From: an archaeon
Lineage (GTDB): Archaea > Asgardarchaeota > Thorarchaeia > Thorarchaeales > Thorarchaeaceae
Direction of reading: 5' to 3'
Length of the DNA stretch: 64,000 nt
Assembly (NCBI GenBank): GCA_024276825.1
Contig: JAJRWI010000015.1
Location: 44,723-108,722 of the forward strand
The translations under genes and the position numbers were made by a program. Below the pieces are notes generated by a model, which did no database searches, was not told where the DNA came from, and worked only from the letters and a program-made list of their open reading frames with translations. Position 1 is the first letter of the stretch. Each line of letters begins with the position of its first letter. Below, piece after piece: positions 24,777 through 28,516 of the stretch.

Positions 24777-26615
24777 ATGAAGCGAAGGACTGCAATATTT
24801 ACCCTACTGATTCTTGCAGCACTTGTTCTCTCAGCACTCCCCATTCTTGGAGTGGCAACACCTGTTTCGGGAGGGATCTCTGAGAGTACAACAGTGCGAG
24901 TGACGCGAACCGTTGAGTCATATGTAGTAGAGTAGGATCATCCCTACTCTAACTACTTTGATTACACATGGACCATAACTAAGGATGGTGCAACTCAGAT
25001 ACGTGTACATTTTACAAAGATCGATGTTGAGGACAACTATGACTTTGTATATGTATACGATTATGCCGGTTCACAACTTCACAAGCTCACTGGTCTTTAT
25101 TCTTCTGGTGGATGGAGCGATTGGAGCTATGGTGACACAATCAAGGTCAGGCTCAAGACTGACTACTCAGTCACAGAATGGGGCTTTGCCATAGACCAGA
25201 TAGAATATGAAGGTGGAACTGGTGGAGGTGGTACTACAGACAATGTCCTAGAGAGTGGAGTACCAGTGTCAAGTTCATTGAGCGCCACTGGTGACACCGA
25301 GATGTGGACCATTGAGGTCGCCGCAGATGCTGTCAGCATGCACTCAGTGTTGACTTGTGGTACCAATGACTACGACCTATATGGGCGCCTTGGTGCCGAG
25401 CCAACAACCAGCACCTATGACTGGAGAGGCTACACCAGCGGCGGTGAGGACGTCACCTATGACAATCCTGGCCAGGGAACCTGGTACATCATGGTCAGAT
25501 CATACAGCGGTTCTGGCTCTTATGAACTTACAGTGACTATCACCTATGACACAGGTGGCGGTAGTGGCAGCAATGTTCTTGAGAGCGGTGTACCGGTCAC
25601 AAGCTCTTTGAGTGGTACTGGTGACACCGAGATGTGGACCATTGAGGTTGGGGCAAATGCCATCAGTATGCATTCTGTGCTGACTTGTGGCACTAACGAC
25701 TACGACCTATATGGGCGCCTTGGTGCCGAGCCAACAACCAGCACCTATGACTGGAGAGGCTATACTACTGGTGGTGAGGACGTCACCTATGACAACCCTG
25801 GCGAGGGCACCTGGTACATCATGGTCAGATCATACAGTGGCTCAGGTTCTTACGAGCTCACGGTCACCATCACCTATGACACTGGTGGCGGTGGCGGCGG
25901 AGATGGAGTAGTCACAAAGTGGGCAGTGATTGTTGGAATCAGTGACTATGAAGCTATCAGCGATCTTAGCTATTGTGATGAGGATGCCACCGATTGGTAC
26001 AATTACATGACCAATGTCATGGGTTATGATAACATTAGGGTACTTGGTGACACCCATTCCTCAAACTATCCGGCGTACTATGATCTCGCAACGGAGTATA
26101 ATGTGAAAGCAGCATTGAACTGGATGGTTTCGGGTGCTGATGCGGATGATCAGATTGCCTTCATCACATCAGGCCATGGTTCAGGCGATGGTTCTGGATC
26201 ATCATATCTCTGTATGTGGGACAGCAATAGTGGTGAGAATGGTGAGGATGGTAATCTGTATGACACTGAGCTCGCCTCAATTATTGGGAATGCAGTAGCA
26301 TCTCAGATATTCATCTTCATTGATCACTGTTACAGCGGTGGGCTGATTCCGGAGATTGCAGCATTGAGTAATAGTGCTAACATCTACATGACAACCACCT
26401 GCACAGACAACGGCTATGGGTATGATGATTCCACTCATCAAAATGGTGCGTGGACATACCAATTCCTAGAATATGGCCTTATCAACCACTTTGGAAGTAA
26501 TCCGAATACTCTGATGGAAGACTGCTTTGACTATGCTCTAGCTGCATATCCATACAGTGGTGGAGACACTCCACAGGAGTTTGATGGAAACACATCTGTA
26601 GGATTCAAATTGTGA
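24777..26615 (+). pseudogene. Secreted CUB-PPC-PPC-caspase-like (clan CD) peptidase gene interrupted by an in-frame TAG at 24933-24935
   Basis: Signal peptide (MKRR plus hydrophobic stretch); the frame continues past TAG into a CUB-like domain (E*DHPYSN..DYTWTI...IRVHF...YDFV.VYD), two PPC repeats and a domain with SGHG/DHCYSGG dyad; ORFs 24672 and 25266 share one frame. Confidence 0.85.
25241..25890 (+). repeat. Two near-identical 330-bp PPC-domain repeats
   Basis: ACTGGTGACACCGAGATGTGGACC at 25287 and 25617; 110-aa period. Confidence 0.93.
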
Positions 26616-26648
26616 GGGGATTATTTCCCCCACTACTTTTTTTTTTCT
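26616..26648 (+). terminator. Hairpin plus poly-T terminator
   Basis: GGGGA-ttatt-TCCCC followed by a T-run of about 10. Confidence 0.7.
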
Positions 26649-26705
26649 TCAGGATGTTTGATTAGACAGTAAAGTTCTGAAGGCAGAAATCTGGTCAGAC
26701 TTGTC

Positions 26706-26954
26706 ATGTTAGTCAGGATTGGAATAATGGCAAGGAATCTTGGGGTATCCACATCCACACTCAGACCTTGGGAACGTCAGGGCCTTCTTGCTCCCAGCAC
26801 AAGGACTGCAGGTGGGCACAGACGTTATGAAACCAACCCTACCAAGAATGACCTGTGCAATGGTCCTTCAAGAGCTGTCATCCACCTCCACAAATCGCAT
26901 CATTGGTTTTTGTATGAGCTTAAATTGTGTCTGATGAATTGTCTATTGGACTAG
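26706..26954 (+). pseudogene. tnpA: IS607 serine transposase N-terminal fragment
   Basis: MerR-type HTH LGVSTSTLRPWERQG...RTAGGHRRY; the catalytic YARVS motif has decayed to AVIHLHKS. Confidence 0.8.
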
Positions 26955-26989
26955 CATGTTGGGCATCGAAGAGACCCAGACGTACGAAG

Positions 26990-27323
26990 GCCCGAGGGAA
27001 GAGAGCATCTTCTCGAAGGAGGTCCTCACCCTCTCATGACCATAAAGCATCAAGTGGGAGAGGGTCCGTGGTGGAAGAGTACGTACAGACCAGTCTGTAC
27101 GACGGCGGCCCTGCCATGGTGAGAGATGCGGCAACCCCCACTGTGTCCGGAGATGATACGACCGGGGCAACACAGGGGGAAGGAGGCCAGTTCTGCGACA
27201 ATGCAGAAAAAGCCCCTGCGAACACTAGAGTCTATCTGGTGGGTGGTGACACTTGCAGGGGAAGGGCTGAACGCATGAGTCCTGTTCAGACGAGTTCACC
27301 ACTGCGCGACAAGTCTGAACAAG
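26990..27323 (+). ncRNA. Candidate omega-RNA-like structured RNA at the right end of the IS607 remnant
   Basis: Seven consecutive GC-rich stems seen by eye; location matches where TnpB omega RNAs are encoded. Confidence 0.45.
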
Positions 27324-27409
27324 ATTAGGTTGTCAGTAATACCCAGTGTTCGATCAATAGTTTCACTGAGTAGTTATCTTTAGTGATGTCACCCTTAGTA
27401 TTCCTTAAC

Positions 27410-28516
27410 TTACCGTTTCAATGTCTCATCCAATTCTTCTAGAGGATTATCAACAAGCCATTCCACGCCAGAACGCCAAGTCTTGAATTCTGTATCAAAG
27501 TTATCAGGATAAAACCAGTAAAGACAACTGTGTTTTCTAACTGTGTCCATAGTGAATACTTGAAGGTTAGGTAGATTTTCCCAGAGCGTATAGAAGAGGT
27601 TATGTTCATGTGATGGTGGCATCCGCCCCCAGAGAACCACGCCAGAATCTGACAATAGATCTATGGAGAGTGGAAAAGGAGGCGCGAAGTCCTCAAGAAA
27701 GGCGTTGAATAGTTGATTTCTTCGCCCTTCATCAGGGTTCCTGCTATAGAACAGCTTTGTGGAGGTGACATCAAACTGAGACCTGTCAATCTGAGCGCGA
27801 ATCGACTCGATATAATTGCTCATGATATTGATCACTTTTCGACTCACTGTGCTCTGAGACAAGCCAAGCTTTTTTTGCAGAGCGCTCTGAGGGATTGTGG
27901 CATTTGAAGTCAGTTCTCTTAAGATTATCAGATCGGCAGGGCCAAAATCCAATGTTTCGGGGGGCCTCTCTTTCTGAACAGGCAAGATTGTAGATGCAGA
28001 AATGATCACTTTTCTCCAAGTAGCCCAGTCATAGTTCCATGACATAGACTGCGGGTCAAAAAACTCCAGGTTCGTTGTTGTTGATGTCCTATATCCATTG
28101 CTCAGATGATAGAAAACATCATCACAGACACCTATCTCTTTTAGCTTGTCAAGAAACTGATATAGCTTGTCTAAGCCCTTCGTTGGTATGTCGAATTGAG
28201 CCATGATCCCCGTAAAAGGCCCATATATCCTAGAGCGATAATGAGTGTATGGATGAACATCGCATGCTACTTCAATTCCATTCAGTTGATTCTTAGTGTG
28301 AGCCTTGAATAGCACAATAACCCGGACCAGACCCAATCGGGAGGGGTTGAACACTGCAACAGGGTTGGATAGTACACCAGACTTCTTCAATGACTCAATA
28401 TGCTTGTTTGCAGTGATCCAGCTGGTGTTTGCCTTTTCAGCAATCTCTCGTACTGAGATTGTAGGCTTTAGCTCTATCAGCTGAAGAATTCTAAGGTCTA
28501 ATTCTGTAAGCGTCAT
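27410..28516 (-). CDS. Lrp/AsnC-like regulator with duplicated wHTH
   Basis: LDLRIL...SVREIAEK HTH and a second DLIILREL...LSQSTVSRK HTH. Confidence 0.8.
   Translation of the reverse strand: MTLTELDLRILQLIELKPTISVREIAEKANTSWITANKHIESLKKSGVLSNPVAVFNPSRLGLVRVIVLFKAHTKNQLNGIEVACDVHPYTHYRSRIYGPFTGIMAQFDIPTKGLDKLYQFLDKLKEIGVCDDVFYHLSNGYRTSTTTNLEFFDPQSMSWNYDWATWRKVIISASTILPVQKERPPETLDFGPADLIILRELTSNATIPQSALQKKLGLSQSTVSRKVINIMSNYIESIRAQIDRSQFDVTSTKLFYSRNPDEGRRNQLFNAFLEDFAPPFPLSIDLLSDSGVVLWGRMPPSHEHNLFYTLWENLPNLQVFTMDTVRKHSCLYWFYPDNFDTEFKTWRSGVEWLVDNPLEELDETLKR

Follow-up and report, generated by a model that had tools for sequence, protein, structure and literature searches.

Does an element that has lost its nuclease gene still carry, at its right end, the guide RNA of that nuclease, and is this RNA still in use? 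The question arises in the 64,000-nt stretch of Thorarchaeaceae DNA analysed here (the window), where a first-pass annotation had pointed to a GC-rich, densely structured segment (26990-27350) inside an IS607 remnant and had proposed it as an orphan omega RNA. That description of the segment was borne out. Its plus strand reaches a folding energy of -140.9 kcal/mol, whereas 100 dinucleotide shuffles average -121.5 ± 6.4 kcal/mol (z -3.02) and none of them folded as well (the minus strand gave z -2.9), and the GC content of 0.59 (27000-27300) exceeds the 0.40-0.48 of the flanks. All seven stems listed by the annotation were found in the sequence at the coordinates given; six of them correspond to helices with compensatory changes among relatives or to a re-formed 3′ hairpin, both described below, and the first one (26996-27002 with 27008-27014) is supported by eye only, from the alignment. 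Restricting the fold to helices conserved in relatives changed the energy from -139.9 kcal/mol (unconstrained) to -135.7 kcal/mol. The extent, by comparison, had to be redrawn: the conserved structured unit runs from about 26948 (motif GGACTAG) to 27334 (GGTTGTC), and roughly two thirds of its length have their homologue in the 3′ end of a tnpB reading frame. Rfam gave no match, whether the whole window was searched at the gathering threshold or 26600-27450 at E ≤ 1.

The results presented below, that is colinear homology with tnpB-linked sequences and covariation across them, lead us to conclude that 26948-27334 on the plus strand is a TnpB omega-RNA scaffold within a non-autonomous element, with a probability of about 0.9. 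A stronger statement adds to this identity that the RNA was, or still is, under selection as a guide RNA; towards it we lean with clearly less assurance. The features of the locus are collected in Table 1.

Table 1. Features of the IS607-type element and its surroundings, in window coordinates.
Feature	Position	Strand	Basis
Gene for a secreted caspase/PPC protein, neighbour on one side	25266-26615	+	
Whole non-autonomous IS607-type element, left to right end	26667..27336 (+/-2 nt)	+	similarity to copies starts and stops here, flanks differ
Left end: CNGTAA + TTCTGAAGG, inner terminal inverted-repeat arm at 26692-26705	26667..26705	+	five copies aligned
IS607 tnpA remnant: MerR-type HTH only, ~42 codons	26706..26831	+	Pfam MerR, E 8e-14
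TATA-like TTAAAT, ~25 nt 5′ of scaffold start	26920..26925	+	read from the sequence; kept in C28p
Open frame of 133 codons, decayed TnpB C-terminal tail	26927..27328	+	colinear with tail of the 670-aa TnpB of G003:C326
Omega-RNA scaffold, ~387 nt	26948..27334	+	colinear alignment, covariation, homology end at GGTTGTC
Helix ACCCTCTC/GAGAGGGT with inner hairpin	27028..27065	+	A1 helix 2: 4/7 pairs double-changed, 97.7% paired
Domain closed by CCGTGGT/GCCATGG	27066..27121	+	A1 helices 3-7
Hairpin CGTACAGAC/GTCTGTACG inside the CCGTGGT/GCCATGG domain	27082-27101	+	
Long-range helix ATGCG (27126-27130)/CGCAT (27272-27276), closes 3′ domain	27126..27276	+	A1 helix 8
Hairpin CCCC.CTGTGTCCGG / CCGG..ACACAG.GGGG	27136..27179	+	A1 helices 9-10
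Hairpin TTCTGC/GCAGAA	27191..27208	+	A2 helix 11: 2 pairs with double changes
Helix CCCCTGC/GCAGGGG around variable hairpin + conserved GGTGGTGACAC	27213..27261	+	A1, A2 helix 13
3′ terminal two-tier hairpin TGTTCAGAC/GTCTGAACA, GTTCACCAC at top	27278..27325	+	
Predicted guide, flank beside right end	27335..27356 (start 27335 or 27337)	+	first non-conserved bases in 11 copies
Gene for a double-HTH regulator, neighbour on other side	27410-28516	-	

The element, its ends and its copies

The annotation's assignment to IS607 is supported by a MerR-HTH TnpA start together with both transposon ends. The HTH is 75-77% identical to the N-termini of the intact MerR+Resolvase proteins P0002 and P0003 (190-215 aa); the reading frame it opens (26706-26954) continues past it into unrelated sequence, and the catalytic resolvase domain is gone, which is what a remnant would lead one to expect. 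The ends were delimited by comparison with copies in the same genome, which were found by BLAST of 26690-27360 against its 82 contigs (98.3% complete). This search, on which copy finding rests, returned at least 12 further copies or fragments, located on contigs C28, C12 (both ends), C24 (two), C7, C67 and C35. Among them are a full-length paralog (C28p, C28:81903-82512), which is 75% identical over positions 6-646, and long copies of the right end (both ends of C12, C24:59080-59306 and C7), together with several MITE-like copies in which about 110 nt of left end are fused directly to the last 65-250 nt of the right end. Left-end pieces were also seen at the edges of C36 and C47, and since contigs break inside these repeats more copies could be unassembled.

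The left ends have CNGTAA and TTC(T/A)GAAG in common, which places the left boundary at about 26667-26670. On the right, conservation stops at GGTTGTC (27334) in 11 right ends, usually followed by AG, and the flanks beyond are unrelated. A 14-nt subterminal inverted repeat joins 26692-26705 with 27308-27321 (93% complementary). The element is therefore a gene-less one, with both ends present, several copies, open reading frames reduced to stubs and an omega RNA on board. A search for an empty site in the two genomes of the same genus gave no orthologous locus. Directly after the right end of one MITE copy, at C28:14082-14130, stands a second partial right-end repeat (AAGTTTGAATAAATTCAGGTTGT), an arrangement that looks like a tandem or nested insertion.

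The structured unit is colinear with the 3′ ends of tnpB loci

About 30 intact loci contain a colinear counterpart of the plus strand of 26948-27334: the last ~300 nt of their tnpB and ~125 nt beyond it, to where the similarity of those loci ends. This places the unit where the annotation had placed it, at the right end of a TnpB element, and its claim that the RNA was retained without the nuclease gene also stands, tnpB being deleted in the window element. The TnpB relatives are numerous: 55 of 86 related genomes contain them, in more than 200 matches at E ≤ 1e-20. The homology to the TnpB tail was recognised only through nucleotide alignments, given that a tblastn search of the TnpB encoded on C24 against the element gave nothing significant.

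Compared with most loci, the window family is without two hairpins, one of 27 nt and one of 17 nt that contains the usual tnpB stop codon. Both deletions are common to the TnpB locus of G003:C326 (tnpB at L117:2955-4967), the closest TnpB-linked relative found, whose 670-aa frame reads through the scaffold as the window frame does. The 5′-most covarying hairpin of the TnpB loci is also absent from the window family. In other genera, 10 of 16 DNA matches are TnpB-less and start at about TnpB residue 453 (442-453), at the motif GGACTAGG, with a different left part ahead of this junction, suggesting that the GGACTAGG point may be the functional 5′ limit of the RNA.

A second TnpB-less scaffold family was observed in genera g14 and g16 (L052, L053, L055, L056, L057, L029, L030, L031), in which another ~230-nt left part meets the scaffold where that of the window element does, at GGACTAGG.

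Covariation supports a plus-strand RNA

For the comparison, 31 loci with long open TnpB frames of 545-594 aa were chosen, and the helices were mapped on an alignment of 31 sequences (A1). RNAalifold predicted 70 pairs, of which 41 carry compensatory changes. Across A1, 95.7% of cells are paired, as compared to 43-47% when the partners are slid by 1-3 columns, and double changes were observed in 41 pairs and 227 cells, compared to 12-20 pairs and 30-55 cells in the slid controls. None of 500 shuffles matched A1 on any pairing measure. Many conserved G-U pairs fit the plus strand only, for instance pair 87-163 in all 30 sequences scored, and the RNA strand is therefore the plus strand.

In the long-range helix 8 all five pairs are changed on both sides (99.4% paired), and the window itself has two double changes relative to the consensus CTGTG/CACAG; in helix 13, six of eight pairs are double-changed and 99.6% of cells are paired. 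Copies C12a and C12b replace the CCGG/CCGG of helices 9-10 with CAGGGA/TCCCTG. The two hairpins missing from the window family can be placed on this map: the relatives' extra 27-nt hairpin sits in the domain closed by CCGTGGT/GCCATGG, where it is deleted in the window family, and the hairpin with the tnpB stop codon is enclosed, in relatives, by TTCTGC/GCAGAA. At the 3′ end, the two-tier hairpin with TTCACT in its loop re-forms in about 25 of the 31 sequences despite differing arms (it is not re-formed in L064, L074, L080, L081, L084 and L085), and its 3′ arm doubles as the right-end inverted repeat (I1, I2). Upstream, more hairpins with compensatory changes were recognised in the alignment, by eye only; the annotation's first stem and the 5′-most hairpin lost from the window family are among them.

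The fold is kept in long orphan copies

The copies within this genome bear on whether the RNA mattered after tnpB was lost. In an alignment of 12 of them, 91.5% of cells are paired, compared to 32-47% with slid partners, and the long copies, which differ by 16-23%, retain 86-95% of pairs, although these percentages are inflated by the relatedness of the copies and by the use of the window sequence as source of the test structure. Seven pairs and 15 cells show double changes, and none of 500 shuffles was as good. We then placed each copy's substitutions randomly on the window sequence in 2000 runs and compared the pairing. Simulations paired at least as well as the actual copy in 0 of 2000 runs for C28p, 3 for C12a, 8 for C24m, 13 for C12b and 66 for C24c, and in C28p and C12a the density of substitutions is two to three times lower at paired than at unpaired sites. 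No pairing excess was seen in these simulations for C7m (190 nt) and four short MITE copies (65-100 nt), and C67, with two differences, is too similar to judge. The divergence arose after tnpB loss, because the window and C28p have the same deletion junction. These data argue for selection on the RNA fold in the scaffold-bearing copies: scaffold-only derivatives hold their structure, and shorter MITEs decay.

An inert relic would be an omega-RNA gene by descent, without present function, that persists through recent copying and because its right end is needed in cis for transposition. We regard this as possible but clearly less probable than a selected guide RNA. It would account for the absence of a cognate-type TnpB from the 98.3%-complete assembly, for the short MITE copies being neutral with respect to structure, for the in-frame stop and 5′ truncation of C24c, and for the loss of the 5′-most hairpin from the window family. 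It does not readily account for long copies that keep their pairs beyond random expectation, with compensatory changes, from a single shared deletion junction and hence after tnpB loss, nor for the recurrence of scaffold-only derivatives in other genera. The short MITE copies do indicate that transposition needs only the last ~65-100 nt, and part of the conservation is therefore a cis requirement of the right end.

Predicted position of the guide

The annotation had let the guide begin with TTGTC. This had to be moved: TTGTC(AG) is conserved in all 11 right ends of the genome and is therefore part of the element, so that the guide is expected to start at about 27335-27337. The flanking sequence from there on (27335..27356) is unique in the genome and, holding the first non-conserved bases after GGTTGTC(AG) in the copies, is the guide predicted under the TnpB paradigm. 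A search for second-site targets with the flank "guides" of the 11 copies gave chance-level partial matches only; guides that match their own loci, with no sign of other targets, fit a homing model. As for a TAM, the sequences 5′ of five left ends showed no conserved motif apart from CNGTAA, which belongs to the element itself.

A guide located inside the scaffold was also considered. For Asgard TnpB loci, the segment between a conserved T and GTTCACTCA has been speculated to be the guide (PMC10691335), and in the window, where the variant of this motif is GTTCACCAC at 27295-27303, the corresponding segment would be the spacer-like, variable stretch 27278-27294, between the conserved T and the GTTCAC motif. 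It is indeed the most variable segment among the TnpB loci, and the conserved GTTCACTCA follows it directly. Its bases, however, pair in most of the 31 sequences with the stretch 3′ of the motif, leaving TTCACT in the loop, and its variation is therefore the covariation of a two-tier hairpin; moreover, window-family copies at different genomic sites carry the same segment. An internal guide is thus improbable, and the "hypervariable" guide proposed in the literature is here a hairpin arm.

The right end as a possible DNA-level element

The same terminal hairpin raises the slightly weaker alternative that the segment acts at the DNA level only, by providing hairpins or sites to which the IS607 serine recombinase binds. 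Its 3′ arm (27308-27321) repeats, in inverted orientation, the left-end motif at 26692-26705, and this last part is retained in all MITE copies. Such a role explains the last ~50 nt only, whereas the upstream ~330 nt covary, have G-U pairs that fit one strand and are homologous to the scaffolds of tnpB loci, whose left end differs and which lack an IS607 tnpA. We therefore give a purely cis-acting element very little weight as an account of the whole unit.

Constraint acts on the RNA, not on the protein

The omega-RNA scaffold overlaps the end of an ancestral coding region, and the window frame can still be matched to the TnpB tail (GLACW...KARGK and GLGRW...KAQGK, respectively). The annotation would have taken protein coding in parent elements as an argument against its proposal. 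From 26948 to about 27195 the parental sequence is, formally, coding; the constraint is nevertheless on the RNA, and the overlap does not count against an omega RNA because overlap with the 3′ end of tnpB is normal for this class. In the last ~100 codons of TnpB loci L058-L087 (550-580 aa), variability at codon positions 1/2/3 is flat, 0.29/0.28/0.35, compared to 0.30/0.20/0.58 in the core. In the last 80 codons paired columns vary by 0.20-0.26 and unpaired ones by 0.34-0.39, regardless of codon position. The C-terminal tail of these TnpBs appears to be essentially translated omega RNA.

A functional small protein made from the 133-codon frame can be dismissed: the frame is open in the window and most copies, but it has no Pfam match, shows no third-position excess (differences between this genome's orphan copies fall 83/88/78 on codon positions 1/2/3), is interrupted in C28p and C24c, and corresponds to a low-constraint TnpB tail without nuclease domains.

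A possible partner and mode of action

The sole TnpB in the assembly is a 549-aa open frame on C24 (C24:45302-46951; PF07282), apparently intact, with RuvC-I, alternative Glu and RuvC-III motifs. It belongs to another sub-lineage: its identity to the closest cognate-type TnpB is 44%, and the two hairpins absent from the window family are both present in its scaffold. Since the only TnpB of the assembly is of this other sub-lineage, its role as trans partner of the orphan scaffold is uncertain.

Taking transcription, TnpB binding, guide use and the choice of TnpB from the TnpB paradigm, the element could work as follows. Its layout comprises the left end, the first 42 tnpA codons, an internal deletion and the whole scaffold up to the right end. 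Transcription of the plus strand would start either at the left end or at the TATA-like box (26920), whose sequence makes it a candidate archaeal promoter inside the element for the orphan RNA. The ~390-nt scaffold would fold as mapped, and a 3′ extension into the flank from ~27335 would supply a guide of 16-20 nt. A TnpB supplied in trans would bind the RNA and cut the empty donor site after excision, and recombination following this cut would restore the element.

A broader proposal is that selection maintains the family's scaffold-only elements as dispersed guide RNAs, with one or a few TnpB genes acting on them in trans. We offer it tentatively and consider it doubtful at present; if true, the last ~100 TnpB codons in this lineage would be little more than translated omega RNA.

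Relation to known systems

The omega RNAs (reRNAs) of IS200/IS605 and IS607 elements, for example ISDra2, are described in Karvelis 2021 and Altae-Tran 2021, as cited in PMC10691335 and PMC8730458. The window scaffold resembles them in lying on the tnpB strand, overlapping the tnpB 3′ end, reaching the right end, having a covarying scaffold and being expected to take its guide from the adjoining flank. Unlike the TnpB omega RNAs of those accounts, it is far longer, with ~390 nt in the window and ~430 nt in relatives linked to a TnpB, where it takes in the last ~100 codons; it also has no Rfam match.

Gene-less elements that carry an omega RNA have been reported as well. In Geobacillus stearothermophilus, PATE-like IS200/IS605 elements without genes often encode omega RNAs on which a TnpB would have to act in trans (Meers et al., preprint 10.1101/2023.03.14.532601). 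The window element is like them protein-less and non-autonomous, with both ends and an omega RNA that a TnpB encoded elsewhere would have to use, but its left end is of the IS607 type (MerR-HTH serine recombinase) and not Y1/IS605, its host is an archaeon and it keeps a 42-codon tnpA stub. IS607-family TnpB elements, whose eukaryotic descendants are the Fanzors (PMC10711439, PMC11832414), likewise combine the start of a MerR-HTH serine-recombinase tnpA with a TnpB-derived right end in one element; in contrast to them, no intact tnpA-tnpB parent was found here and the TnpB-linked relatives have no tnpA.

Among Asgard archaea, Altae-Tran et al. 2023 (PMC10691335) described the TnpB groups Cas1H-Asgard-1/2 and RuvC-II-rearranged TnpBs, with Gly in place of the RuvC-II Glu, plus an alternative Glu. 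The TnpBs studied here similarly have IA(I/L)G at the canonical RuvC-II site and a conserved Glu before WTS, and the relatives show the same conserved T, variable segment and GTTCACTCA downstream of tnpB. They depart from the published description in that the variable segment forms an arm of a hairpin, where a spacer had been speculated. Their conserved divergent neighbour is a giant ORF without Pfam or PDB sequence match, in which a Cas1 homologue was not recognised from the sequence.

The annotation's suggestion of an undescribed RNA-guided system is therefore not supported, as the TnpB family is abundant (55 of 86 genomes), Asgard loci with GTTCACTCA have been published (PMC10691335) and so have gene-less omega-RNA elements (10.1101/2023.03.14.532601). 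An orphan omega RNA in an IS607-type remnant is a known kind of element, not a new system. What is added is a covariation-backed secondary structure for an omega RNA of unusual length that Rfam does not contain and that belongs to an abundant Asgard TnpB family; this structure may be of use for the annotation of Asgard genomes and for choosing pairs of RNA and protein for biochemistry.

Search for a parent element

A search for full-length parents, which the annotation had suggested, returned no locus with tnpA and tnpB together, in the 86 family genomes or in the protein index, although a parent that the databases lack may have existed. At 31 of 31 TnpB loci there is no MerR tnpA within 1.4 kb, and 20 tnpA loci of relatives have no TnpB of this family. 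The closest tnpA (G081:C19, L112) stands alone, without a recognisable right end, and the left end of the TnpB-linked relatives differs from that of the window element, carrying TATA-like boxes and no IS607 tnpA. A Heimdallarchaeal IS607 whose HTH is 64% identical was rejected as parent, its TnpB being unrelated and its DNA without similarity.

On a Heimdallarchaeaceae contig (L113:3330-5900), an IS607 tnpA is followed by a tnpB called as two frames of 347 aa and 167 aa; this tnpB appears to be frameshifted and is unrelated to the TnpB family of the scaffold. Other IS607-type TnpAs of about 200 aa (MerR+Resolvase) were noted in the family at L089, L092, L093, L099, L106 and L107, each with a convergent ORF of ~490-500 aa that has no Pfam match and is not a TnpB of the studied family.

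Observations at related TnpB loci

A giant ORF, conserved and divergently oriented, lies about 240 nt upstream of tnpB at 22 of the 31 loci from relatives. It measures 1,765 aa where complete (>1,300-1,765 aa) and is seen at L111:2068-7362 (-), which is G036:C64, L109:2-4000 (-), L108:241-2739 (+) and L117:2-2512 (-). Its sequence gave no Pfam or PDB match and no Cas1 domain at the sequence level; it may be a partner or transposase of these elements, a place for which the literature names an Asgard Cas1 homologue, or cargo.

In three genomes of three genera, the right end of the TnpB element directly adjoins a convergent tRNA-Gly(TCC) gene, at the 3′ end of that gene (L081:3314-3389, L084:1279-1353, L085:1867-1941). 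This looks like an old fixed insertion, in which a guide derived from the flank would match the end of the tRNA gene. At four further loci (L071, L074, L075, L063) the right flank is identical, ACACTACAGGGGC, though the genomes differ, and is probably a shared repeated target, namely another mobile element.
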